Shown: positions 5,559-44,262, numbered from the stretch's first letter. The stretch: 44,262 bases of DNA from an uncultured archaeon (GCA_964473825.1 CAYYQL010000019.1:1-44262), one strand, 5' to 3'. Notes: generated by a model not told the origin, from the sequence alone. Program-made: numbers and translations.

Positions 5559-8216
5559 GTGATGTCCATGGTACCCACTACGACGGATGAGCAGTTTGAT
5601 ATTCTTGAGGAGGGCCTGATAACAGAAGCTCTGACGAGAAGATGGGACATCAAGTATGCCAAGTTCGCAAAGGACGGCAGCCAGTCGCTCTTTGTCCACG
5701 CCCTCAATACATCATACGTTGCCAGAATTCTCGGACAGCACGTATTCGACCTTGAGGGAGATGATCTCTTGCTTGTTTACTTGAGCGGATTCCTGCACGA
5801 TTACCAGAAGGCAGAAGACTCTTGGCAGGAGGCAGCTGTGGCATTCATCAAAGGCAACAGACCCGATGATGCTGCATTCGCACACGACGATGGATCAGAA
5901 GATGCAAGAGTACGCTTGAGAGAGATTCTTGAGAGAGTTCAGGAAAGTGCGACAAGCCATGGAGTTGCCCTCGACATCGTCGCCCTTATCGACCGCATTC
6001 TCAATATTGTGGTGTATACTCACGACAGCAAGAATCCGGCAGAGGGGGGACGGCGAAAGAGGCAGGTGGGCCCGATTGACCAGATTGCCAGAGTCATACG
6101 ACTGGCAGATGCAATAGCGAGCATCCGGCAACCACGCGAAATCCTGAAGAAAGCAGATGATTTGGATATGCCTGAGGGAAGACAACTCTCATTCGACTAC
6201 CACGAGATATCTGTGGTCAGAGGGCTGGTCACCAGCTTCCTCAACGAAGCGATTGTTGAATCCATGGAGGAACTTGGATATATCCCGCTGCTCCATTTTG
6301 GTGCCGGGAGTGTATATCTCTACATTGGAGAACAGAGAGAAAATCTCGATTTCGCCACTATCATCAAGGACAAACTTGACAGACAGGTAGAAGCGTTCCA
6401 AGACTCTGATGCATATGAAACGGGGATGACGAATGCAGTCATTGGCCCTCTTGTTCAGACGAAGTGGCCTGCCATTCATCTTGTGCGAGAAAAGGACATT
6501 CCTGAGATCATCAGCTACCTTTCTTCTCTTCCGGCCATGAACAAGGATGAGAAATACGGCAGGGGTGTGGCAAAGAAGGCAAAATCAGCTGAGAAGAAAG
6601 GCGCATTGGAAGTGTTTCTGAAGAATACAGGTTCAGACACTGACCCCATACTCGCGATGATGACCTCAGACTTCAACCTTCTCGTGTATGTTGCAGATTT
6701 CCTCAAGAGTTATGCTGCTTTCGCGGAAGAGGCAGATCGACTTGACGAATTCGTCCGAGATGTCGATGGTTTCCTCTCAGAGGAGTTTTCCGATCTGGCA
6801 CTAGAATCTCTCAGCGATATCACACATACCACCGGATTCATCCGTCGTCTAGAAGCTGTGTCAACCATCTGGAACCTGGAAGAAGGCGGTCTTCACCGAG
6901 ACCCTGACAGAAGGAAGCGTCTTGAGAAGGCGTTCATACGGATTCTCCGTGAGATTCTCACCAAGTATGGGAGTTGCGCCCCCAAGCTGCTGACAGACCG
7001 TGCCAAGAACTTGCTTATCTCGGATGTTCGCTATCTGCCTTTCTCAGTTCTTGACGACAAGGAAATTAGAGACCTCAGTGAGGGGCCCTCTGACAGATAC
7101 CTCAGAGGAAAGGATCAGAAGAAACGGATATGTAGTTTCTGTGGCGCAGAAGGGGCAGATGATGCACCGGCCACGTTGTTCGGTGACGGTTCGCAGCGCT
7201 TCTCAAACTTCCTGAAAGCGGGAACGAAAATCGGCGCAGGAAGAAAGGCTCAGGTCTGTGAGGTCTGCATGGTTGAGTCAATGCTCAGAGCATTCTACTT
7301 TCCCTCAGCTCCTGCTACGACGATGGTAGTGATTCCGGATTTGTCGCTGTCGCCAGCAATGGCCCGACAATGGGCGAATGCAGTCAAAGACTTCTCCAAG
7401 CGTGAGAGAGTCGGCCTGAGTACAGGCTCAGTATGGAATATGCTTGATGTTTACAAGAGACTTGCCAGAGGGAAGACAATCAACAATGCTTCGCAACTGG
7501 TAAGCTTGCTGAGACCAACCAACACTCGCGTGAAGGCCCTTGTATCGCATCTGAAGAATGTCAGAAGCAGTCCCGAAGAGGTCATCTTCGAAGGTGAACT
7601 AGACTCGGAGGATGAACAGACCTTTGAGAGAATCGCACATGCTCATCTTTCTGGAGATATCAGGATACACGACAGGCTTCTTGAGGGGTACAAGAAACCA
7701 AACAGGATTCAGGGAACAGCATACTTGACTTCTGGGCACATGTTTCTGTTCTTCCGAAATCCCCTCTATGAAGATCGGGACGAGTCACCGAGTACAATCG
7801 CAATTCGAGCGCATCTCTTGGCACTGATTATAGCCAAGATTTACCATGCACGGGTCATCGTCATCGATGGCTTCCAGGCCATTACGGATATCTCAATGGA
7901 CGGTGTTGTGAAATCGACTCTGCCGGCACCCGCTGCATCTGCTCTTAGAAGCCTGGGAGTGAGCGAACAACCACGACTACATGAAGTGATGCCGGCACTG
8001 AGGAAGCTGTCAGCTTTGACCCAGATAACGATGAGCTACGTCAAGAAGATGGGGAAGGATCGCCTCCTTCGGATGGGGTCGATGAATCGTGGCGCAATCT
8101 TGAGGCGTGCTCAGATGGAAGATTCACAACAAGTGAAGAAATACCAGAGGCAGTTCGTCGAGCTGCTGGACGTTCTCCCTGCAGCGGCAGGAGAGGACGA
8201 ATTTGCATCAACTTAG
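5559..8216 (+). CDS. cas10d: Type I-D large subunit Cas10d (Csc3) with N-terminal HD nuclease
   Basis: SLFVHALN...GFLHDYQK...LADAIAS HD-domain motifs; CSFCG...CEVC zinc finger; upstream of csc2 and csc1. Confidence 0.88.
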   Translation: MMSMVPTTTDEQFDILEEGLITEALTRRWDIKYAKFAKDGSQSLFVHALNTSYVARILGQHVFDLEGDDLLLVYLSGFLHDYQKAEDSWQEAAVAFIKGNRPDDAAFAHDDGSEDARVRLREILERVQESATSHGVALDIVALIDRILNIVVYTHDSKNPAEGGRRKRQVGPIDQIARVIRLADAIASIRQPREILKKADDLDMPEGRQLSFDYHEISVVRGLVTSFLNEAIVESMEELGYIPLLHFGAGSVYLYIGEQRENLDFATIIKDKLDRQVEAFQDSDAYETGMTNAVIGPLVQTKWPAIHLVREKDIPEIISYLSSLPAMNKDEKYGRGVAKKAKSAEKKGALEVFLKNTGSDTDPILAMMTSDFNLLVYVADFLKSYAAFAEEADRLDEFVRDVDGFLSEEFSDLALESLSDITHTTGFIRRLEAVSTIWNLEEGGLHRDPDRRKRLEKAFIRILREILTKYGSCAPKLLTDRAKNLLISDVRYLPFSVLDDKEIRDLSEGPSDRYLRGKDQKKRICSFCGAEGADDAPATLFGDGSQRFSNFLKAGTKIGAGRKAQVCEVCMVESMLRAFYFPSAPATTMVVIPDLSLSPAMARQWANAVKDFSKRERVGLSTGSVWNMLDVYKRLARGKTINNASQLVSLLRPTNTRVKALVSHLKNVRSSPEEVIFEGELDSEDEQTFERIAHAHLSGDIRIHDRLLEGYKKPNRIQGTAYLTSGHMFLFFRNPLYEDRDESPSTIAIRAHLLALIIAKIYHARVIVIDGFQAITDISMDGVVKSTLPAPAASALRSLGVSEQPRLHEVMPALRKLSALTQITMSYVKKMGKDRLLRMGSMNRGAILRRAQMEDSQQVKKYQRQFVELLDVLPAAAGEDEFAST

Positions 8217-17150: not shown

Positions 17151-18489
17151 GTTGCAGAAGTAAATCCCAGATTGAGGGAATTGAAAGGGATATAGGTCTT
17201 TCATCCAGACCCCGTAACGGTGGCGCTGTTGCAGAAGTAAATCCCAGATTGAGGGAATTGAAAGTTGCTAGGATTACACTCGTTGTTCGATCAGACATGT
17301 TTCCGTTGCAGAAGTAAATCCCAGATTGAGGGAATTGAAAGCCGTAGTATTTGTCTTTGACAATCCGCACAAGCTCCATAGTTGCAGAAGTAAATCCCAG
17401 ATTGAGGGAATTGAAAGCTCAGCTCAAGGCCTTCATTGATTATCAGTTCAGCCCAGTGTTGCAGAAGTAAATCCCAGATTGAGGGAATTGAAAGGGGTGT
17501 AACCCTTGCGACTCTAACGCTCGCTCTATCAACTCAGTTGCAGAAGTAAATCCCAGATTGAGGGAATTGAAAGACAACGGCCCATTTAGGCCCCTGTTGG
17601 GTTAACTCAAGGTTGCAGAAGTAAATCCCAGATTGAGGGAATTGAAAGACCACCGGCCAGTAGCCGATAGCTGGTTGACGGGGGGACTGTTGCAGAAGTA
17701 AATCCCAGATTGAGGGAATTGAAAGGTTCAGGAGGCGCTTGAAAGACGTATTTCTCTTTGTCGGCGTTGCAGAAGTAAATCCCAGATTGAGGGAATTGAA
17801 AGTTTCTTTAGCGGCGTCAACGGTAAACGTTGGCGTTGGAGAAGTTGCAGAAGTAAATCCCAGATTGAGGGAATTGAAAGTTTCTTTAGCGGCGTCAACG
17901 GTAAACGTTGGCGTTGGAGAAGTTGCAGAAGTAAATCCCAGATTGAGGGAATTGAAAGAGACACTTACGCACGCTAGTCGGCCTCCGGGATAGCACCATG
18001 TTGCAGAAGTAAATCCCAGATTGAGGGAATTGAAAGGATATCGAGGCCTTGATTGAAGTTCACTCTGAGACCGTTGCAGAAGTAAATCCCAGATTGAGGG
18101 AATTGAAAGGTTCCATCTAAGAAGAAAAGAGGAAGAAGGAGGTCAAAAAGTTGCAGAAGTAAATCCCAGATTGAGGGAATTGAAAGAAGTGTTAAGATTT
18201 TGATAGGGAAGTTTGTCTTGTCCTGCAGTTGCAGAAGTAAATCCCAGATTGAGGGAATTGAAAGTTCTTGTTCATTGATTGTTTGCATAGTTGTTTCATT
18301 CGTTGCAGAAGTAAATCCCAGATTGAGGGAATTGAAAGACGACACGCCTCTCCAACTTGGGCATCCGATACTGTGTGCGTTGCAGAAGTAAATCCCAGAT
18401 TGAGGGAATTGAAAGGGATCAGGCAGTCCTGTTACCGAAGTAAACTCGGTATGTTGCAGAAGTAAATCCCAGATTGAGGGAATTGAAAG
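17151..18489 (+). CRISPR. CRISPR array 2: 18 intact 37-bp repeats GTTGCAGAAGTAAATCCCAGATTGAGGGAATTGAAAG, plus a degenerate terminal repeat at 18527-18563
   Basis: Repeats counted by eye; differs from the array 1 repeat at 4 positions. Confidence 0.98.
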
Positions 18490-18526
18490 GGCTCGTGTGA
18501 AAGGTAAGAAATGGAAGAAACAGCTA

Positions 18527-33557: not shown

Positions 33558-34028
33558 TTGACATCGACAGCAGATACCTCAAGCTCATCAGCAAGAACAA
33601 AGAGAAAGCGAAAGAAGGGCTTTGAGCCTCAGATTCTGTCATTCTGCTGCAACTGGTGCTCTTACGCCGGAGCAGACTTGGCGGGGACTAGCAGGATGCA
33701 GATGCCGCCCAATGTCAGAATCGTCAGGGTGAATTGCACTGGCCGCATAGACCCATCATTCATTCTCGATGCTCTCGCCCAGGGAGCAGATGGCATCCTG
33801 ATATCGGGCTGTCATCCTGGGGACTGCCATTACACCAGTGGAAACCTGAAGATGGCGGGTCGCTTCGCACTGTTGACCAGTCTCGTTGAGCAGGCAGGAT
33901 TTGACCCAAGACGCATTCATCTACAGTGGGCGAGCGCTGCTGAAGGTGATGTATTCAGAAACGGCGTGACTGAGATGGTGAAACGAATCAAAGAACTGGG
34001 TCCGAACCCTGTAAGGGAGGACGTGTAG
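33558..34028 (+). CDS. mvhD: F420-non-reducing hydrogenase delta subunit MvhD/VhuD (Cys form)
   Basis: FCCNWCSYAGADLAG, RVNCTGRID and GCHPGDCHY motifs. Confidence 0.95.
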   Translation: MTSTADTSSSSARTKRKRKKGFEPQILSFCCNWCSYAGADLAGTSRMQMPPNVRIVRVNCTGRIDPSFILDALAQGADGILISGCHPGDCHYTSGNLKMAGRFALLTSLVEQAGFDPRRIHLQWASAAEGDVFRNGVTEMVKRIKELGPNPVREDV

Positions 34029-34029
34029 A

Positions 34030-34944
34030 ATGACAAAGAGAGTAGCATTTACGCAGCTCACCTCGTGTTGGGGCTGTGACCAATCATTGGTCGATCTCCA
34101 TTTTCGACTTCTTGAAGTACTCCCTGAGCTGGAGATAGTGTTCTGGCCGGCCGTCGTCGACTTCAAACTGAAAGATCTTGAGAGCCTGCCCGATGAGTCG
34201 ATTCACCTCGGATTCGTTGAGGGAAGCTGCAGAACCAATGAAGATCTGCACCTGCTGAAGACGATGCGTAAGAAGAGCAAGTTCCTGATAGCATGGGGCT
34301 CATGCTCATGTTTCGGTGGTGTCCAGGGCCTTGGAAACCAGTGGCCTATCGACGAACTGGTAGAGAGGAAGTTCCTGCAGGCGGACTCCGTTACAGATCC
34401 AAGGATTCCAGAGAGCAATATGCCGGGTTTTCTCGGGATAGTCAAGCCAAATCCCGCTCATGTCAAGTTCAACATGGTTCTTCCAGGTTGTCCACCCACG
34501 TCGGACAACACGTACAATGTTGTAGAGGCGCTACTCACGGGTAAGCCATTCGACCTCCCGGAGAAGACGGTGTGTGACGAATGTCCAAAGGAACGAGAGG
34601 ACAAGCACATCGAGAAGTTCTACAGGACCCACGAGGGGAAGATAGACCCTGATAGATGCCTTCTTGATCAAGGGTATCTCTGTCTGGGTTTTGCAACCAT
34701 CGGGCTCTGTGGGGCACAGTGTCCAACAGTGAACACACCATGCAAGGGATGCTTTGGACCCCCTCCGTCCGTTAGAGACCATGGTGCCAAGATAATCTCT
34801 GCTCTGGGTGCTGTGGCAGAGATGAGTCCAGAAGAACTGAAGGAGGCCTTTCCTGACCCAATCGGTTCCTTCTATTTCACTGATTATGCGGCATCCTATC
34901 TATCGAGCATTACCGCGAAGAAGAGGGAGGAAAAAGGCAAATGA
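34030..34944 (+). CDS. vhuG: F420-non-reducing hydrogenase small subunit MvhG/VhuG
   Basis: SCWGCD, VEGS, WGSCSCFGG, PGCPP and C-terminal Cys clusters. Confidence 0.93.
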   Translation: MTKRVAFTQLTSCWGCDQSLVDLHFRLLEVLPELEIVFWPAVVDFKLKDLESLPDESIHLGFVEGSCRTNEDLHLLKTMRKKSKFLIAWGSCSCFGGVQGLGNQWPIDELVERKFLQADSVTDPRIPESNMPGFLGIVKPNPAHVKFNMVLPGCPPTSDNTYNVVEALLTGKPFDLPEKTVCDECPKEREDKHIEKFYRTHEGKIDPDRCLLDQGYLCLGFATIGLCGAQCPTVNTPCKGCFGPPPSVRDHGAKIISALGAVAEMSPEELKEAFPDPIGSFYFTDYAASYLSSITAKKREEKGK

Positions 34945-36254
34945 CTGACGAGAAGGTAATACGGATCGAACCAGTGACTCGATTGGAAGGCCACGGTGAG
35001 CTGACACTCAAGCTCTCGAAGACTGGCAAGGTGAAAGATGTCCAGTTCAATGTCTCGAGCACACGGTTCTTTGAGAAGTTCCTTGAGGGACGCTTCGCAG
35101 AAGAGGTGCCAAGGATTGCCGAGCGCATCTGTGGCATCTGTCCTGAGCCGCACCATCTGGCTTCAGTCAAGGCGGTAGAGGCAGCATGGAGAGTGACTCC
35201 GCCACCAGCAGCAGTCAAGGTAAGACGACTGTTAATCAATGCCAAGCAGTTATCATCACACGCACTCCACTTCTTTGCACTGGCTGCACCTGACTTCTTA
35301 GCTGGGCCCTTTGCAGAGCCATCCAAGAGAAATGTTGTCGAGGTTATCAAACAACTCCCCGATGTCGGAAAGCTCGCTCTAAGCGTCATGAAGTACGGTC
35401 AAGAGCTTGCCACTGCTATCGGCGGGAAGGCCATCCACCCTGTCACGGCAACTCCCGGTGGGATGTTGAATCCGTTCTCCGAAGAGAAGAGAGACAACTT
35501 CCTTGGTCTCATGGACGGACTCAAGGAGAACATAACAGAAACGGTGGAATTGGCGAAGAAAGTCGTTGAGGATTACTGGGACCCGATAACAAAACTTGGC
35601 GTTGTGCCGACTTATTATCTAGGGACCCATGATAAGGGAAGGCTTGAGATATACGATGGAAACATACGCGTGATGGACCCAGAGGGCAAGATAGTCGAAG
35701 ACTTCAAACCGAAGGACTATCTGGACTACTACGGGGAGTATGTGCCGGATCATTCCTATGCAACGCACATCTATTACAAACCTGCGGGGTATCCAGATGG
35801 AATCTGGAGAGCGAACTCCCTGGCCCGGGTCAACATTGCAGACAAAATGAAGACACCTCTTGCCCAGGAGGCGCTCCAGGAGATGCGCGACAAACTGGGC
35901 AGGCCAATCCACGCGGTGTTTGCCTACCACTGGGCACGGGTCATCGAGATGGTTCAGGCCATGGAAGAGATGGATGAACTGCTCCAAGACCCAGATATTG
36001 TCAGCACCGATGTCAAACTGACAGATGTTGAGCCACGCAAAGGTAATGGAGTTGGCTGTGTCGAGGCACCACGGGGGACTCTAGTCCATCATTACTGGAC
36101 AGATGACCGAGGAATCATCACCAAGGTGAACCTCGTTGTTGCAACAAACAACAATATAGCGGGCATTGAGAAGAGCCTCATGCAGGCAGCCAAACAGATA
36201 TTCGAGAAGAAAGAGCATGAACAGCTAGACCTACCGGAGCCGATGATGAAGTAG
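34941..36254 (+). CDS. vhuA: [NiFe(Se)] hydrogenase large subunit VhuA, lacking the C-terminal L2 motif (supplied by VhuU)
   Basis: EPVTRLEGH, RICGICPEPH (L1) and EAPRGTLVHHY motifs; ends without DPCxxC. Confidence 0.93.
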   Translation: MTDEKVIRIEPVTRLEGHGELTLKLSKTGKVKDVQFNVSSTRFFEKFLEGRFAEEVPRIAERICGICPEPHHLASVKAVEAAWRVTPPPAAVKVRRLLINAKQLSSHALHFFALAAPDFLAGPFAEPSKRNVVEVIKQLPDVGKLALSVMKYGQELATAIGGKAIHPVTATPGGMLNPFSEEKRDNFLGLMDGLKENITETVELAKKVVEDYWDPITKLGVVPTYYLGTHDKGRLEIYDGNIRVMDPEGKIVEDFKPKDYLDYYGEYVPDHSYATHIYYKPAGYPDGIWRANSLARVNIADKMKTPLAQEALQEMRDKLGRPIHAVFAYHWARVIEMVQAMEEMDELLQDPDIVSTDVKLTDVEPRKGNGVGCVEAPRGTLVHHYWTDDRGIITKVNLVVATNNNIAGIEKSLMQAAKQIFEKKEHEQLDLPEPMMK

Positions 36255-36262
36255 TGATAAAA

Positions 36263-36415
36263 ATGACAGATGAAATAGACGAAGGCCTGCTGAACCTCCT
36301 GGAAATGGTGGTTCGCTGCTACGACTGCTGACTATCCTGCGGCGCTCATTTCGTCGTTGTGGACGATGAGGGTCGCGAGATAGTCCGGAAGGAGTTAGTG
36401 ACTGGCGGCGGATGA
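36263..36415 (+). CDS. vhuU: Selenoprotein VhuU (50 aa, in-frame UGA=Sec at 36329-36331): MTDEIDEGLLNLLEMVVRCYDCULSCGAHFVVVDDEGREIVRKELVTGGG
   Basis: Manual translation. The EMVVRxYDxUxSCxxH motif is the L2 motif missing from VhuA, and a SECIS follows. Not in the ORF track. Confidence 0.92.
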
Positions 36416-36450
36416 AGGCCCGGCGTAAAGATGTGAGCCGGGTTGGACAC
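36408..36450 (+). promoter_or_regulatory. Eukaryote-like (Asgard-type) SECIS element
   Basis: AUGAA-GGCCCGGC-(GUAAAGAUGUGA loop with AAA)-GCCGGGUU-GGAC: AUGA/GA quartet, stem and apical adenines. Confidence 0.8.
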
Positions 36451-36626
36451 GCCCCGCAAGGGCGCGTCGGTCGCACTCCTTGGATATTTCTTTAACTACT
36501 AAAAAACCATGAGATGTACGTAAAATTGGAAGTAGGACTATTGTCGGTTACCGAAAAGCGATGTAGCTATCGAGGTCCTAGAATTGAGAGAAGGAACCGA
36601 TTTGCTCACTGGTTTGTTCTAGACAT

Positions 36627-39600
36627 TTATTTTTCAAAAGGTTGAAGATTCCGTCCGGGTACAGTATAACCGGAAAGAATAGCCCAAATTTTTCTTAGAT
36701 CCGGTGGATCTAAGGCGAGATTACTTAGGGCCTCGTCCTGCCAAGCACCATGCTCTAGTGAAGAAAGCCACTCCCGAGCTTTTCGAATAGACGGCATGCT
36801 ACCATCTAGAAATTCCCTAAATGCATCCGCCATGAGTTTGGCTGCAGCACGAGGAACGCCTGCATTGCACAGAACCATGCCTTCAAGCGTATCGATTCCA
36901 AAATAAGCCATCGCCGGTAGGCTGAGAATCTCATACTTCTTCCTCAAATCGAGGCCTTCAAACCCCTTGTTCGTTCTCATGCTTTCTATCAACGCACCAA
37001 GTCCCCAGCTGCCAAACACGCGAATGGAATGAATGAGATCCACTGCTGCGTCTATGCGTTCAATTACATTGTTCATATCGAATATCGTAGGCACGGCAAT
37101 CTGGGAAACGGGAACTCCCTTTACCCAGAGAGCAATTGCTTTCTTCAATTGGTCACTGCTGATATCCTCAAGTTTCGATTCAATCTCGGGTATCTGTTTT
37201 AGCATTGCTGCGAACTGCGAAAGGAAGGGTCCACCCGGCTGCAACAAAGATTCTACATTCACATATTCACCTAGCTCAATCTTTTCGCTACTTGAAGAAA
37301 TCATCTGGACGGATTGAGGCGAAAAGCCAGTCCTATCAACTCTTTCCAGCAAATCATCGGAGTATGACAAAAGACTTTCAGAGAATTCCCTACACCCATC
37401 CAACAATTTCTGCGCCTCATTCGGATTTGACTTCAGTAGATTCTGATATCCTAAAGTCGCTTGAACTAGGGTGTCGATATGATTCTTAATATCCTCTTTG
37501 CCCTCCATCTGGCGATATGCGTGAGTAAGATACTGTATGAAGCTTGACCACGCCGAGTCAACTTTGAAGGCGTGTTCAAGATTCACTCTGCCAGCCTTGA
37601 GAACCGTGTCAATTACAATTTGCTGTAATCCTGTGACTAGATTGTCTACACTCCGATTCACAAACGAATTCAAGTCTTTGTCATCGTCTTTATTCGTAAA
37701 CACAATCAAGCCGACCAGGTCCTGATGAGCTCGCCCCACTCGACCTGCAATGTTCCAGAACAGGTCCGAACTCATGGGCTTGGGGGGTTGACCAATGAGA
37801 TAATCATTCAGAATAAGAGAGGATATGGGGAAATTGACCCCATAGGCTATTGTAGGGGTTGCAACTAAGACCCTCAGTCTGTTCCGTCGCATTAGCCATT
37901 CAACGAGGAAACGAACCTCCTCTGAAACTTTGCCGTGATGGTAGGCGATTCCCTTCCTTAGCAATGAAACCAAATCATATTCAGATCCATATTCCATTTC
38001 AAGAAACCTGCAGACTAATTCAATATCAGGGTGATCAGTATCAGCGCAAAGGTCGGAGAGGAAATTAGCTATCTTGCGTGCGTATGTCGTCTTTTGACTA
38101 TACACGACGAGATTGCCACGGGCTGACAAGAAATGCCCAAAGATAGCTGCAACCTGGTATTTCGCAAGTTGAGATTTCGTGAGTTTCATGCCCGGGTTGG
38201 AGCAGCAATCAATCTCGCCTTGAAATGCCAGAGTTTCATGTGATGTATAGAGTGGTTCTAGCCGAAACTGCCAGTCTTTTCCCCATCCAACAGGTTTAGC
38301 AAAACCAATAAATTGCTTGTTCGGGCGCCATTCAAGCCGTATGTCAGTACCTTCTGTGCCCCCAAGCCACTCTGCGAGGTTTCGGGAATTCGGTATAGAG
38401 GGAGCAAGAAGCAGAAAGCGTGCCTCTTCACAATCTAGCTTCAGTGTGGTAAGAAGCATTTCTGACTTAAGAGGGCGTTCGTTATTGTTGCGACTGCCTC
38501 GGAGAGAGTCAGCCTCATCGAAGACAACAAGTCTGAGTTTCCTGCTTGTTTCTCCAACCCTGCCGCTACGTAGAAGAAGATCTAGCTTCTCTGGCGTTGT
38601 CACCAAGATATCAAATCCCCCCTCTTCTACTAGGGCCTCCTCCGTGGGATCAATCTCCGAAACAGGAACAGCCTTCTCAACTCTGTAACCCAAGGGCTCC
38701 AAGTCTACCCTTAGGTCAACTGCGACTTGGTTCACCAGAGTTCTCGTAGGAACAATATAGGCAACCCAAGACTCCGAAGTATTCTCAAGAGTATAGACAA
38801 TCTTAAACTCGGCGAGTAGAGTCTTGCCTGCGCTAGTTGGCATAGTCACGACTATAGCCGGAGTTGCGTGCTTCAGAAGGTCATATTGATATATTGCATC
38901 ACGTTGTGCCGGCCAGAGCTCGAGTATTGGACCCCCTTTATCCGGGCTCGCCAGATGTCTAATCATATCTGATAGCGTAGTTTCAGTTTCAGCTAGAAGA
39001 GTCCATATGCTTGATTCGATTAGTTTGGCTGCTGCTTGCCGAATCCAGATAGATATCGTAGTTAGCCTCGCAAGTCCAGAGTCTTCAGCCAGCTTTAGAG
39101 CTCTACCAAAATGATGCTGAAGTCCATCTTCTGTTGGAATCCTTTCTCCGGATATTAGAAACTTACCAAGAATCTCCACTGCTCGGGCTAGATGATATAA
39201 TGCAAGAAGTTCTGTGGCTGCAGGAAAGCCTTTGTTCCGACCCTTGAGATATTCACCCTCTTTCTCTAACTGCCATTCTCTCAGCTTCTGAATTGACTCG
39301 ACAGCATTCTTTAGTTCATCCCAATTCCCCTTTCTGACTAGAAGTAAAAACGTTCTCATGATGCCCCTGTAGACAGTCTCCGGCCAGCTTGAATCCTGGG
39401 ATGATAGGGAAGGTACCAGAGTTTCCAGCCACTTACTAACATCGATAGATCGCTCACCAAGAACGCCAAGACAGGATGCTTTTACCAAATGGGTCAGCAA
39501 GTCTGTCATATTGTCAGGAACTGGTACGGTGCAATAGAAACTAAACGCCCTAGCAGAGAGATCGTGTATGTCCTCCGTATCTCCTTCCACGCATTTCGCG

Positions 39601-39698
39601 AATACCTGCATCTCAAGAAGGCCAGCTGTTTGAAGCATCTGGTCAATCTCTGATGCCTGGACAGAACACTCATTCTCAGGAATTGCGGCTCCCAGCAT
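36627..39698 (-). CDS. Ski2-like SF2 DEAD/DEAH helicase, Hachiman HamB-like (frame is open up to 39776)
   Basis: MPTSAGKT, TPEKLD, FDEAD, AYHHG, ATPTIAYGVNFP and NIAGRVGR motifs; long helical N-terminus; follows a nuclease gene. Confidence 0.8.
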   Translation of the reverse strand: MLGAAIPENECSVQASEIDQMLQTAGLLEMQVFAKCVEGDTEDIHDLSARAFSFYCTVPVPDNMTDLLTHLVKASCLGVLGERSIDVSKWLETLVPSLSSQDSSWPETVYRGIMRTFLLLVRKGNWDELKNAVESIQKLREWQLEKEGEYLKGRNKGFPAATELLALYHLARAVEILGKFLISGERIPTEDGLQHHFGRALKLAEDSGLARLTTISIWIRQAAAKLIESSIWTLLAETETTLSDMIRHLASPDKGGPILELWPAQRDAIYQYDLLKHATPAIVVTMPTSAGKTLLAEFKIVYTLENTSESWVAYIVPTRTLVNQVAVDLRVDLEPLGYRVEKAVPVSEIDPTEEALVEEGGFDILVTTPEKLDLLLRSGRVGETSRKLRLVVFDEADSLRGSRNNNERPLKSEMLLTTLKLDCEEARFLLLAPSIPNSRNLAEWLGGTEGTDIRLEWRPNKQFIGFAKPVGWGKDWQFRLEPLYTSHETLAFQGEIDCCSNPGMKLTKSQLAKYQVAAIFGHFLSARGNLVVYSQKTTYARKIANFLSDLCADTDHPDIELVCRFLEMEYGSEYDLVSLLRKGIAYHHGKVSEEVRFLVEWLMRRNRLRVLVATPTIAYGVNFPISSLILNDYLIGQPPKPMSSDLFWNIAGRVGRAHQDLVGLIVFTNKDDDKDLNSFVNRSVDNLVTGLQQIVIDTVLKAGRVNLEHAFKVDSAWSSFIQYLTHAYRQMEGKEDIKNHIDTLVQATLGYQNLLKSNPNEAQKLLDGCREFSESLLSYSDDLLERVDRTGFSPQSVQMISSSSEKIELGEYVNVESLLQPGGPFLSQFAAMLKQIPEIESKLEDISSDQLKKAIALWVKGVPVSQIAVPTIFDMNNVIERIDAAVDLIHSIRVFGSWGLGALIESMRTNKGFEGLDLRKKYEILSLPAMAYFGIDTLEGMVLCNAGVPRAAAKLMADAFREFLDGSMPSIRKAREWLSSLEHGAWQDEALSNLALDPPDLRKIWAILSGYTVPGRNLQPFEK

Positions 39699-39765
39699 GA
39701 GCTTGGCAGAGGTTTCTTTTGCGTCAGAGAGCTGATCTGAAGTCCATAATTGGTATTCTTCATTA

Positions 39766-40539
39766 TCAGGCGACAGTCATATCAATCCTCCCTCTTAGTT
39801 CAAGAAGGCAATTTTCGAATGGCAGTTGAATGTAAAGTGCAATCAGAACAACCTTAGGTGATGATGAGTTAGAGTATCGTTGTAGCACAACATCTAGGTC
39901 CCTTCTGTCTGGTTGTGTGTCCTTCACAAGCAAGCCATGTATCTTATATCTGCCATCTTTGTGTTGTTTCAGTGCCTCCATAAATCGATCGATCTTACCG
40001 AGTTTGCTGCACCTTATATAGAGCCAATGAATTGCGTACGTGGCTCTCTTGCCCTGCAGAGACACGAGTTGGCTTATTAGTCCGTCTTTGCCATAGAGAC
40101 ATCGTGGTGGGGCTCCATCACTTGTCGTCTTTACTTCGCCAAATGCAAAGAAGGTCGAGCCGTCTTCCTCAGAAAAACCAATGATATCTGCTCCTGCGCC
40201 ACTCTCTCGCGCGTTCTTCTCATCCCAGAAAACTGACCAAGGAAGTTCAACTCGAGAGGTTTGCTGAAGGTAGCATGTTGCAAGAAGTTGGCCAAGCTTC
40301 GGCTTGTCAAGATACCTTGTCTGCCGGATATCTTCCTGGAGGTAATCAAGACTGAATTGGGTTGAGGTTGCCTGCTGTAAGTCTTCTTCTGACAGTTGAA
40401 CCAAATGCCTCCTCAGGCACGGAATAAAATCCCCGCAGAGATACGTAAGGAAATCATCACCACTTAGAGCCTTCATCCCGAGCATTTCCACAGAACCAAT
40501 TGATTCACTGTATTCCTGTACCCACAAACGGATCACCAA
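39766..40539 (-). CDS. PD-(D/E)XK nuclease-like protein, Hachiman HamA-like
   Basis: GADIIGF...FGEVKT motif; directly upstream of the helicase. Confidence 0.65.
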   Translation of the reverse strand: MVIRLWVQEYSESIGSVEMLGMKALSGDDFLTYLCGDFIPCLRRHLVQLSEEDLQQATSTQFSLDYLQEDIRQTRYLDKPKLGQLLATCYLQQTSRVELPWSVFWDEKNARESGAGADIIGFSEEDGSTFFAFGEVKTTSDGAPPRCLYGKDGLISQLVSLQGKRATYAIHWLYIRCSKLGKIDRFMEALKQHKDGRYKIHGLLVKDTQPDRRDLDVVLQRYSNSSSPKVVLIALYIQLPFENCLLELRGRIDMTVA

Positions 40540-41095
40540 GCATGTTGACGCATCGCCTCAGAGGCAGGAGTATCTTCGGAATATGCTTTGGAGCACCGCT
40601 CGAATTCCCCATTCAAATTTTGGCAGTTGGACAAAGACACCGTTCGCTGAGTGCTTTCAGCCACTATTTGTCCCAATATCAAACGCCTCCAATTGCTAGC
40701 TTGATGTATCTGATATAAGTATTCTCTGCAGAATGGCTCTGTAAAATAATTCTCATATTGTTCACGAAATGAATTCTGTGAGCAACGAAATGGGTCTCTT
40801 CTGATAGTTTTGAGTTGCTCCATACAAGTTTTCCTTCATCTAAGCCATGTGAACTCGATTTATTTTACAGGGCCCTGCAGAATGACACTCTACGTTCATG
40901 GATCTAGACACTACCCAATGAAAGCAGATGGTCGTCCTTCCTAGCGCACCCTATTCTTGCCTCTAAGTATTACGTCTGTCAAAATGATTGGTTAGGCCCG
41001 TATTATCTAATTCAATAGAGAGTGGTTAAAGTGAATCGACCAGGAATATGAGATGAAAACACCACGTCAGAGATTCGGGCCGGACAGGTCCTGCA

Positions 41096-41123
41096 CCGCA
41101 AGGGCGCGCTGGTCGCACTCCTT
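41096..41123 (+). repeat. Partial copy of the post-SECIS hairpin region (36454-36481)
   Basis: CCGCAAGGGCGCG(CT/TC)GGTCGCACTCCTT, 26/28 identical. Confidence 0.8.
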
Positions 41124-41436
41124 CTATTACCACTCCTCGTCCAAGGTACAAAAGCAAAGTGAAACAATGGCTGTTCGCGGCAGCCTTGGGTTTCCCAAAG
41201 CTTCGAGAAAAATGGAGGCTCAACATAGTGTTTGGGCGAGCGATCCCCCGTGTTTCACCATATTGCTGGATGAAGTGTGAACGTCAATCCGATTCTTCAT
41301 TTGAGAGATAAAACGCACACCCTTCATTGGATTTCTGAATTCAAGGGATTTCGTATTATCTGCGAAAAATATGCAGGCTGCACTGAGGAAAAAGACCGAC
41401 CAGACATATCTTTCAGAGGGTTCTCGACAGGCTCTG

Positions 41437-43191
41437 CTATTCCCAATGCTGCTTGATGTACCTCAGTGTTTCTTCTAAATCGTAGTGCACAGTACTTCCC
41501 CCAGCTCGAACGTATAGGACTTGTCTTCCGTCCTTCTTCATGAAGACAGGATTTGGCGAACGTCGAACATCAACTCGGCAAATCTCCACTCCATTAGAAA
41601 CCGGGAAACTTACCATGTAGTATTTTCTGAAGGCCCCTCCAACTTCTCTATTGAATATGTTGGTCAGATGAATCTCAAACCTGTCCGAGTCCTTTCTGCT
41701 GCTGAAGGATGCGTAGTCGTCCTCCAGTCCGAGGACTTCGCCTTCATCATCTACCCCGATGAGAAGGGTTCCTCCCTCAGAATTCATGAAGCCGCAAATT
41801 GTCTTCAGAACTGGCTTCCACAATTCCTTGTTTGGTTTCCCTTCTTCATAGCTATATATCAATGAAGACTTGAATTCTAGAAAGCGGGATTCTTTAGATT
41901 GTATTAGCTCCTCTACACTCAGATTCCGGAGTTTCTCTGGCGCGAAGGCATGTGGACTCTTTCTATACCAAAACCAAAACCCCCCAAGAAACACAAGCCC
42001 TCCAACCCACATTGAGGATCGAATAGTGACCAGTTGAATCATAGATGTTGGTGAGTACGACTTGGGCACTTGAATGATATATCCGTCGGCCGTTCCAATG
42101 TAGAGATAATCCCGTCCGGTATTCTCGGGAACGAGAATCGACCGAGGGTCTGCAGGATACCGGTTGAGTTTCATTTGCTCTCTAGTAATCTTTGCAACGA
42201 CGGTTTGGTCATCTCTATCCAAATCAAAATACGCTAGACCTCCATAAGTGCCAACATATAGTAGTTTCTCATCTTTGTCAAATCCAAATGCATTGACTCT
42301 TCGTGATTCGAGACCGTCATCTTCTGTCAATCTAGATCTGACTAGATTCGCGTGTGTACCATTCTCTTGGAATATGAATAAGCCATTATCGGTTCCAACG
42401 TAGATCTTGTGATGGTACTGATAGTATTCAATGCAGTTCACGGATATCCAGTCCCCAAACTCATCCTTCTCTGAATAGGTGAAGTTCTTTCCGGTCCTCA
42501 AATCGATGAAAGAGAATCCCCGATCCGTACCTGCTAATAGAATATCCCCCCGAATCTGCATACTCCTAACATAGTTGGAGGGAAGCCCATGTGACGTGTT
42601 GATGAACCTAATCTCTCGCGAAGCCATGAGGCATTCAACGATTCCAAAGCCCGGACTACCAAAGAAGACCCTAGAATTGGCACCATCATCATAGTATTCG
42701 ACTTCTTCGAATCTCATGTCCTCGGTCATATTGCGGATGAAGAAGGATTGGAATTCATAGGTTGAAGAGGGATATGTGTGTGTGTAATGATATACTGAAC
42801 CGTTCTCTCTTCCGGTTGTGTAGAAATGACTGAATCCTGATAGATATGGTTCTATATCATATGCGTGGGTAGTCCATGTACTATTGTCCATTTTGATTGG
42901 TCCAGTAATATTTCGGTTTCCTCTATCATAGAAGTATAATCCGTCCAGCCCCTGGAAAATAATCTCGAACTCATTTGGGTCAGCAAAAGCCATAGGTCTG
43001 ACAGTATAACCACCATAGGGGCCGACATGTGTCCAGATTAAATCCTCATAGTTTGGCTGAAGATAGTGTACGTCTAATGTTGCCACAGTGGGAAGTACAA
43101 GGAATGTCACTATCAGCATTTGCAAGAACCGCCTGTTTGTCCATCTTAGGCTTCGCTGTTCAATCTCAGGCTTCGTCTCCCTGATAGTCAT
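41437..43191 (-). CDS. Membrane-anchored protein: signal/TM, beta-propeller ectodomain, TM, cytoplasmic Schlafen/AlbA_2 domain
   Basis: GLPSNYV/GLESRRV and LYVGTYGGL propeller repeats; TM MWVGGLVFLGGFWFWY-RK; ES..LEFKSS, CGFMNSEGGTLLIGVDD.G...G and YVRAGGST motifs. Confidence 0.85.
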   Translation of the reverse strand: MTIRETKPEIEQRSLRWTNRRFLQMLIVTFLVLPTVATLDVHYLQPNYEDLIWTHVGPYGGYTVRPMAFADPNEFEIIFQGLDGLYFYDRGNRNITGPIKMDNSTWTTHAYDIEPYLSGFSHFYTTGRENGSVYHYTHTYPSSTYEFQSFFIRNMTEDMRFEEVEYYDDGANSRVFFGSPGFGIVECLMASREIRFINTSHGLPSNYVRSMQIRGDILLAGTDRGFSFIDLRTGKNFTYSEKDEFGDWISVNCIEYYQYHHKIYVGTDNGLFIFQENGTHANLVRSRLTEDDGLESRRVNAFGFDKDEKLLYVGTYGGLAYFDLDRDDQTVVAKITREQMKLNRYPADPRSILVPENTGRDYLYIGTADGYIIQVPKSYSPTSMIQLVTIRSSMWVGGLVFLGGFWFWYRKSPHAFAPEKLRNLSVEELIQSKESRFLEFKSSLIYSYEEGKPNKELWKPVLKTICGFMNSEGGTLLIGVDDEGEVLGLEDDYASFSSRKDSDRFEIHLTNIFNREVGGAFRKYYMVSFPVSNGVEICRVDVRRSPNPVFMKKDGRQVLYVRAGGSTVHYDLEETLRYIKQHWE

Positions 43192-43194
43192 ATG

Positions 43195-44157
43195 TCAAAG
43201 AGCCTCCAGTATTCGCAAGATGCTGTAGAGTGAATTATGTATCGTATGTATGGCCCAAGGATGAGTGATTTTGTTAGATGATACCCAAACTGCTCCGAAT
43301 GTTAGGCCAAATCCGAGTCTGGTCAGGAGCGCACTCAGCATTGAACTGACCGGATCGAAGAGAACTCGTGAATATTGCGCATCAGAAACAAAGTGAAGAA
43401 ACGCAAATATCGTTGAAGAAACAAGTAGGCCCATCACCCTGCTTCCGAAATACTGCGAGAGTCTCGGTTGAGCTATGGCTCGAAAGACCAATTCTTCAAC
43501 GAAACCCGTTATTATCCCGAGGGATATAATTAGGGATATCATACGCGTGAAGATCTCGGGTGTTATGAGTAACGGCAAAGCTCTAGAGAGTGGTATTAGA
43601 CGAAACAAGAAAACGATGACCAAGGCCATCAAGACGACCTTTGTGAGATTGTCTTCATCTCCATCACCTTGCCCAAAAAAAAGAGGTTTCAAAGATTGGC
43701 CCCAACCCCGAGTCAAAATCAGTACAATCGGAATAGAACCGATAAGAAGCAAAATGCCTGAAAAGAGAACGCCGAAACCCTCTAGGAGCGGCAGAACGAC
43801 CCATGCAGCAGTTAGATAGAGCAAAATGATGAGAGTTGCTTCTTCGAGCGGATTGATGTAGAGCTTGATTGTATTTGACAACTCGTGACTATAGGCACTT
43901 ATCAGCAAATAGGCAAGAACTAATGAAGTTAGACCAAGAACCAAGATAGAGATGTCTGAATAGGTGATTGCAGCTGCGACTGCTAGCGATGAAACGAAAA
44001 CCACAAACACCTGCAGGATTGCCTTGTCGCGTTCAAAAATAGGTAATGTGTGTCTTTCCTCCGGCCCCTGCCTTTCAGGGATATTTGCGTCATCTACTTG
44101 CACAGTACTACACGCCCCAATATGCGATTCTCTGATTCTTGATATGTAGGTATCCAA
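43195..44157 (-). CDS. CPBP (CAAX/Abi) family intramembrane metalloprotease
   Basis: Multiple TM segments; EELVFR, FAFLH and HTIHN motifs. Confidence 0.9.
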   Translation of the reverse strand: MDTYISRIRESHIGACSTVQVDDANIPERQGPEERHTLPIFERDKAILQVFVVFVSSLAVAAAITYSDISILVLGLTSLVLAYLLISAYSHELSNTIKLYINPLEEATLIILLYLTAAWVVLPLLEGFGVLFSGILLLIGSIPIVLILTRGWGQSLKPLFFGQGDGDEDNLTKVVLMALVIVFLFRLIPLSRALPLLITPEIFTRMISLIISLGIITGFVEELVFRAIAQPRLSQYFGSRVMGLLVSSTIFAFLHFVSDAQYSRVLFDPVSSMLSALLTRLGFGLTFGAVWVSSNKITHPWAIHTIHNSLYSILRILEAL

Positions 44158-44204
44158 ATTTAAGGTTTCGAATTCCTATATCCTCTTTCCCACTCGGCAC
44201 ATTG

Positions 44205-44262
44205 TGTGGCGCTCATTTCGTCGTGGTTGACGATGAGGGTCGCGAGATAGTCCGGAAGGAGT
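44205..44262 (+). repeat. Duplicated 3' part of vhuU (att-like direct repeat)
   Basis: Matches 36338-36395 with 3 synonymous differences; the sequence upstream is not homologous to vhuU. Confidence 0.9.

Follow-up and report, generated by a model that had tools for sequence, protein, structure and literature searches.

Two kinds of gene array grow at the 3' end of a conserved gene and carry no integrase gene of their own. First, streptococcal cis-mobilizable elements (CIMEs), which are integrase-less cargo blocks of 1–13 kb, accrete in tandem at the 3' ends of the conserved protein genes fda, rpsI, rplL and rpmG, with direct repeats between them (PMC7563491). Second, in the type VI secretion system (T6SS) effector–immunity clusters of Vibrio and in rhs orphan arrays, an incoming 3' end displaces the old one behind a conserved upstream anchor and leaves orphan ends downstream, for which homology-facilitated illegitimate recombination has been proposed (PMC5361080). 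Here, we compare with these systems the 3' end of the selenoprotein gene vhuU in a 44,262-nt stretch of DNA (hereafter the window; CAYYQL010000019.1), the entire contig C19 of a 3.27-Mb metagenome-assembled genome (MAG) of Thorarchaeia (Asgard archaea), labelled G000 and assembled with k = 55. This gene end, with its selenocysteine insertion sequence (SECIS), may act as a docking site for gene cassettes that requires no dedicated integrase. Other genomes likewise carry G numbers, with C denoting contigs and L fetched loci; the comparison set consists of 86 family genomes (Thorarchaeia), which are incomplete MAGs.

The segment 36338–36395 of vhuU recurs at 44205–44262, where the contig ends, with 55 of 58 bases identical (blastn E = 3e-19), and the three differences (TGC/TGT, GTT/GTG, GTG/GTT) are each synonymous in the vhuU frame, just as a first-pass annotation of the window had described. 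That annotation placed the start of homology at the Ni-ligand Cys just after selenocysteine (Sec); the repeat does begin at a Cys codon, but it is the second Cys, three codons past Sec (U-L-S-C). Between the copies lies an island of about 7.7 kb which, again as annotated, is richer in AT than the upstream DNA (GC 43–48% versus 48–54%) and has its four long open reading frames (ORFs) all on the minus strand; these match Pfam families other than recombinases and integrases. A decayed vhuU-end copy within the island (r1, Table 1), no longer folding as a SECIS and ending at the same base as the repeat end, shows that the island consists of two cassettes: a Hachiman-like pair, and an AlbA-domain protein with a CAAX protease. 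This is a second vhuU SECIS, in decayed form; attempts to extend the contig and to find a recombinase inside the island yielded nothing.

Arrays of this kind surfaced across the family only with hidden Markov model (HMM) and covariance model (CM) searches: in roughly 25–30 of the 86 genomes, up to five 5'-truncated copies per locus lie on the same strand 0.5–7 kb behind vhuU. Each cassette has the layout of vhuU tail, SECIS and terminator, followed by cargo and then a junction. The gene-proximal copy is functional, and the remaining ones are 5'-truncated, decaying direct repeats. Arrays were found at 12 of 44 Thorarchaeia vhuU loci as against none of 19 in Lokiarchaeia, counting loci that were fetched by their match to vhuU and have 3 kb or more of downstream sequence; related genomes among them are not independent. 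As a control we took about 16 single CM matches, regarded as probable true SECIS of other selenoprotein genes by their differing 3' ends; arrays occurred at 0 of 16, five of which have less than 2 kb downstream. An array also stands on a 916-kb contig (G052), and the pyrimidine-tail motif that closes the repeat is confined to arrays or same-strand clusters rather than being a dispersed terminator.

Among the 41 truncated copies, the start ranges from position 16 (that of the window, the longest and the only one in the 86 genomes to start at the Cys codon) to about 141, inside the terminator. None includes the Sec codon, and the longest vhuU copy begins 75 nt before the stop. Sequences upstream of the vhuU junctions are unrelated, with an arm identity of 0.27, which is at chance level. 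While SECIS stems are paired at 93–99% across 47 resident copies, pairing falls to 0.80–0.85 in the truncated ones, 13 of which (out of 41) lack the SECIS core; the pyrimidine tail is equally conserved in both. Most truncated copies are nearer to the resident copy of another species than to that of their own genome. One of them, in L049 (G077) at ~6100–6240, is still open in a frame that reads like the VhuU tail, its substitutions being mostly conservative. In two genera, contigs end in apparently the same SECIS-plus-tail (G086:C8 77554–77670 and G072:C10 1–112), which represents either recent transfer or a binning error.

The cargo comprises one to five genes per cassette in both orientations, often antisense to vhuU, and some of the genes terminate within a repeat copy. 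It includes a DUF6036 nucleotidyltransferase (about ten genomes), DUF5615 and HepT/MNT toxin–antitoxin genes, a hydrolase, an AsnC-type regulator and a saccharopine dehydrogenase. The label of defence island fits the main cargo of the window but not that of the family, which is mixed and not mainly defensive.

Cassettes come, go and change order. On a shared backbone that is ~95% identical, G086 has the resident end R followed by a hydrolase, a truncated copy, an 806-aa gene and another copy, while in G088 the 806-aa gene precedes the hydrolase, as R–806aa–r–hydrolase–r; G090 also has the 806-aa gene first, its first cassette being that of G088. The resident SECIS of G088 is 99% identical to the first truncated copy of G086, and both stand before the 806-aa gene; therefore, a SECIS moves with the cargo that follows it, and a 5' junction with the cargo that precedes it. 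In the two genomes, each junction stands ahead of a different SECIS variant, a reuse that requires recombination among the repeats, most simply host homologous recombination. The link from the 806-aa junction to the next SECIS has at most 18 exact bases in common with other copies in either genome, so the difference in order is not graph ambiguity. Every scenario that we constructed for this swap must include at least one crossover within model positions 46–95. In the filled/empty pair G056 and G078, the extra two-gene block duplicates only the final ~25–35 bp, indicating that crossovers do not fall at a single site.

The phenomenon extends to another gene. In 23 of the 63 genomes with a match (e.g., L208–L227; G069:C188, G081:C84, G088:C13), including the source genome, a single contig carries two to seven copies, in tandem, of the end of the gene for ribosomal protein uS19 (PF00203). 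These copies comprise the last 18–28 codons as synonymous variants with cargo between them; their upper boundary is sharp, at Phe-Ser codons, and their arms are at chance (identity 0.259 versus 0.257 shuffled). Separately, G000:C42 2828–12060 and C75 559–1650, joined by a 55-nt overlap, hold seven same-strand copies of a gene end plus motif, 0.8–6 kb apart, around cargo. Other gene-end duplications flanking cargo in G000 lie at C10 15906–16122/20450–20666, C10 2328/8058, C22 and C55, and one of these surrounds an apparent PIN-type toxin pair.

With a confidence a little better than even, we favor displacement: an incoming vhuU end with its cargo would replace the resident end by homology-anchored illegitimate joining, and host recombination between the leftover ends would reorder the cassettes. 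A cassette would be born when vhu–SECIS–cargo DNA donated by a related Thorarchaeon pairs along the conserved mvhA/vhuU sequence, mvhA being the likely homology anchor, and the far end of the donor is joined illegitimately within the resident tail, by homology-facilitated illegitimate recombination or by one-ended repair and end joining. The donor tail would become the working tail and the resident tail would be pushed downstream. The first copy would be kept intact by selection because the Ni-binding Cys/His and the SECIS reside there. Shuffling would follow from host homologous recombination between leftover tails, which could excise, add and reorder cassettes.

The source population bears on this account. 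Two sequencing runs of one study, a possible source of the MAG, were independently assembled, with coarse unitig depths; almost none of the stretch was present in run X3. Single unitigs cover 36437–40764 and 40846–44237, the latter spanning the right junction, which is therefore present in the read data. The contig ends in a 55-mer that starts just past the first repeat difference, placing its end at an assembly-graph branch. Depth falls from 75.5 and 60.2 upstream to 47 and 41 in both island halves (ratio 0.62–0.69; 0.74–0.78 relative to a second full vhu operon on G000:C40). Thus, the island is carried by about two-thirds of the source population and is missing from about a third; in both congeners, too, this locus has neither the island nor a partial copy. 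Unitigs break exactly at 36357/8 and 44208, implying a form in which the upstream Cys codon is followed by the variant of the right copy. The left-variant unitig has 0.59 and 0.60 of the depth of the shared unitig in the two runs, where 0.59 and 0.62 are expected if the empty allele has the right-copy variant and 0.74 otherwise; this fits a right-copy variant in the empty allele, as displacement predicts. The circular junction sought in the two runs was not seen, unitig 36328–36391 being unbroken, though contigs drop rare forms. The continuation from the loose end at 36481 is absent from the bin, the two congeners and Joint Genome Institute (JGI) metagenomes; by synteny, contig C35 is the likely next backbone piece, with a gap. 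Together with the family data, these results sustain the earlier proposal in one respect: the inserted DNA does bring a replacement vhuU end, with a SECIS variant that in relatives moves with the downstream cassette. The single integrative element with a fixed attP gives way to a two-cassette array with variable 5' ends, unconserved arms, no linked recombinase and no circle.

Several points weigh against displacement. First, neither the joining event nor an intermediate was observed, and the variable copy starts could reflect erosion. Second, recombination of this illegitimate kind is noted to occur orders of magnitude less often than the ordinary kind (Kirchberger 2017, PMC5361080), yet the arrays are common. 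Third, uS19 copies never extend beyond 81–87 nt before the stop, nor vhuU copies beyond 75 nt, which looks site-directed. Fourth, a recombinase acting in trans may be unbinned in these incomplete MAGs or too divergent for PF00589/PF00239. Fifth, G072 has the same variant as the right copy, and the graph branches read as an empty allele could stem from a co-resident species. The shared 5' limit could mark the onset of divergence between donor and recipient; it could also arise if longer repeats are lost, or from a site-directed step. It is the main support for two other accounts.

One of these, the main rival though doubtful in our view, is CIME-like tandem accretion, whereby a helper-encoded recombinase targets the vhuU or uS19 3' end, elements integrate in tandem, the integrase is lost and old attachment (att) sites erode from the 5' side. 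It extends the integrative-element proposal of the annotation to an array. It would reproduce the architecture of the CIMEs at fda/rpsI/rplL/rpmG (PMC7563491) and accommodates the sharp uS19 boundary at Phe-Ser codons, the synonymous replacement ends and the allele switch of the window, which maps to 36341–36357, the 5' edge of the repeat. Conversely, short copies that are still 90–100% identical to a resident copy begin at many positions, no arm is conserved, and the crossover in the G086/G088 swap lies outside the segment implied in the window. Among the vhuU and uS19 arrays examined, none in the 86 incomplete MAGs had an integrase-bearing member, and no recombinase was seen on an array contig. 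Matches to tyrosine recombinases (PF00589) occur in only 29 of the 86 genomes, which suggests that a universal XerA-type recombinase is missing or highly divergent in these MAGs. None of the matches is near an array, and most array genomes have no match at all, G086, G088, G062, G071, G056 and G078 among them. The sole one of G000, on contig C1, has a different gene context and no relative in any fetched locus, and no serine resolvase was found in G000, G002, G081 or G088, the serine recombinase check covering five genomes only. We also considered an imperfect inverted repeat around two Val codons as a recombinase core and dropped it because the allele differences lie inside its spacer.

More tentative still is a dedicated, undescribed gene-capture pathway of Thorarchaeia that would cut or exchange DNA ~60–85 nt before the stop of vhuU, uS19 and perhaps other genes, use neither a tyrosine nor a serine recombinase, take the host's own gene ends as recombination sites and generate integron-like shuffled arrays.

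The extra copies might instead be retained as working parts, namely SECIS for hidden selenoproteins or terminators for cargo, rather than being scars of recombination. The equal conservation of the pyrimidine tail and the cargo genes that end within a copy are in keeping with this, but terminator use may account for retention and not for origin; together with the loss of stem pairing and of the SECIS core, the frequently antisense cargo (entirely so in the window) and the restriction of the tail motif to arrays or same-strand clusters, this renders the idea improbable. Less probable again, and largely refuted, is that misassembly at the contig end, or a piece of the second vhu operon, accounts for the right copy. 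It does stand at the contig end, and the vhuU tail of that operon is identical to the left copy; against this, the right copy differs from both full vhuU genes at the same three sites, the junction is crossed by one unitig in the independent assembly of both runs, the repeat copies within G086 have at most 20 exact bases in common, and the G052 array lies on a 916-kb contig. None of the outcomes named beforehand as fatal to the annotation (misassembly, an independent paralog or the same genes without the repeat) was encountered. Reverse-transcribed mRNA 3' ends would share the fixed 3' end at the terminator and the variable 5' truncation, but such retrocopies are highly implausible given that reverse transcriptase (PF00078) occurs in only five of 86 genomes and not in G000, that copies are restricted to tandem positions behind their own gene with cargo in both orientations, and that SECIS variants move with the downstream cassette.

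The conserved host operon upstream of the island runs vhuD-G-A-U (Table 1), and mvhA has its closest named relative, at 96% identity, in Ca. Thorarchaeota TEKIR_12S. The UGA of the SECIS core also serves as the vhuU stop codon, and the vhuU Sec motif was matched in 57 of the 86 family genomes. Several genomes have two vhuU paralogues (window 36323–36466 and G000:C40; G001, G003, G018) that are near-identical from Sec through SECIS and diverged upstream, a pattern suggestive of conversion between the two or of an exchange of tails, though the assembly may also have collapsed them. In the first cassette, a HamA-like gene lies directly upstream of a DEAD-box helicase gene as in Hachiman (HamAB) and the PADLOC candidate system PDC-M23; the best matches are to PDC-M23A/B, and an antiviral role is predicted from sequence. 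No match to the HamA-like gene was found with this query in 85 family genomes, a homolog search returned only the query itself, and a literature search found no publication on PDC-M23. A miniature inverted-repeat transposable element (MITE), present in 12 copies in G000 (97–100% identity), each with its own 8-bp target duplication, is a later insertion unrelated to the array. The window also holds two clustered regularly interspaced short palindromic repeat (CRISPR) arrays, at 19–2743 and 17151–18491, with related 37-bp repeats in opposite orientations.

Table 1. Features of the vhuU locus in the window, and the uS19 end copies of the source genome
Feature	Position	Strand	Basis
mvhD/vhuD, hydrogenase delta subunit	33558–34028	+	PF02662, E 7e-52
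mvhG/vhuG, small subunit	34030–34944	+	PF01058
mvhA/vhuA, large subunit, without C-terminal Ni motif	34941–36254	+	PF00374
vhuU, 50 codons, Sec UGA at 36329–36331	36263–36415	+	sequence
R, resident functional copy: last 25 codons, SECIS, small hairpin, start of pyrimidine tail	36338–36481	+	loose end at 36481 in two runs
SECIS fold, long stem and small hairpin in a three-way junction	36398–36474	+	fold prediction
Cassette 1: HamB-like DEAD-box helicase, 1023 aa	36627–39698	-	PADLOC PDC-M23B, E 3e-255; HamB1, E 5e-64; PF00270
Cassette 1: HamA-like protein, 257 aa	39766–40539	-	PDC-M23A, E 1e-40; Atlas clusters with PF08878, score 0.96
MITE, 141 bp, terminal inverted repeats, 8-bp target duplication at 40727–40734/40876–40883	40735–40875	.	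copies in genome
r1, decayed internal copy, SECIS core to terminator, between the two cassettes	41052–41127	+	77% over 53 nt; nhmmer E 2e-12; CM E 1e-11
Cassette 2: membrane-anchored protein, C-terminal Schlafen/AlbA_2 domain, 584 aa	41437–43191	-	PF04326, E 3e-18
Cassette 2: CAAX (Rce1-like) protease, 320 aa	43195–44157	-	PF02517, E 5e-15
r2, young displaced copy, truncated by contig end, probably running on through SECIS	44205–44262	+	contig ends at 55-mer graph node
uS19 end copies in source genome	G000:C60 8462–8510 and 10395–10442		

These arrays point to a route for the acquisition, loss and rearrangement of accessory genes (defence, toxin–antitoxin, enzymes and membrane proteins) in an Asgard class, at conserved genes where no integrase is seen. 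SECIS variants move between species, orphan SECIS matches in Thorarchaeia are often scars, and vhuU and uS19 ends serve poorly as phylogenetic markers and are places where contigs frequently break. With arrays this common, the mechanism lends itself to direct tests by long-read population data. The literature searched contained no case in which a selenoprotein tail and its SECIS are the part exchanged: no publication combining SECIS, attB and a genomic island came up, most subscription papers lying outside the search, and keyword searches of an Asgard selenoproteome survey (PMC11227280) and an Asgard mobile-element paper (PMC11529989) returned no passage on such copies.

Among described systems, integrons and clusters of attC sites lacking integron-integrases (CALINs), including those of Asgard archaea (PMC9668308), are likewise repeat-delimited cassette arrays whose order changes, as between G086 and G088 and in G090. 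Here, however, vhu operon genes rather than intI lie upstream, the repeats consist of a host gene end where integrons have attC, and their hairpins decay instead of staying conserved; the repeats lose pairing and have no Rfam match, IntegronFinder itself not having been applied. Further, the cassettes are often multi-gene (one to five) and in either orientation, as opposed to single-gene and co-oriented. The e14 prophage in E. coli icd resembles the vhuU elements in replacing the end of a protein-coding gene with a homologous one (PMC3105296, citing Hill 1989), but it is a single element with its own integrase and precise excision, whereas vhuU has an array with no integrase or circle seen.

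CIMEs share with the vhuU arrays the placement of cargo between direct repeats of the 3' end of the target gene. They derive from integrative and conjugative or integrative and mobilizable elements (ICEs/IMEs), have defined att sites and occur alongside integrase-bearing elements (PMC7563491); at vhuU, no integrase-bearing element was found, the repeat includes a recoding signal, and in place of the fixed core and conserved arms of an att site we see starts from 16 to about 141, arms at chance and differing crossovers. The T6SS/rhs arrays resemble vhuU in having a conserved anchor upstream and orphan 3' pieces that differ in length. The tip swapped there is a selected toxin, with its immunity gene; in Thorarchaeia the tip is functionally constant, being the propeptide with its SECIS or the uS19 tail, and unrelated, mixed cargo rides along with it.

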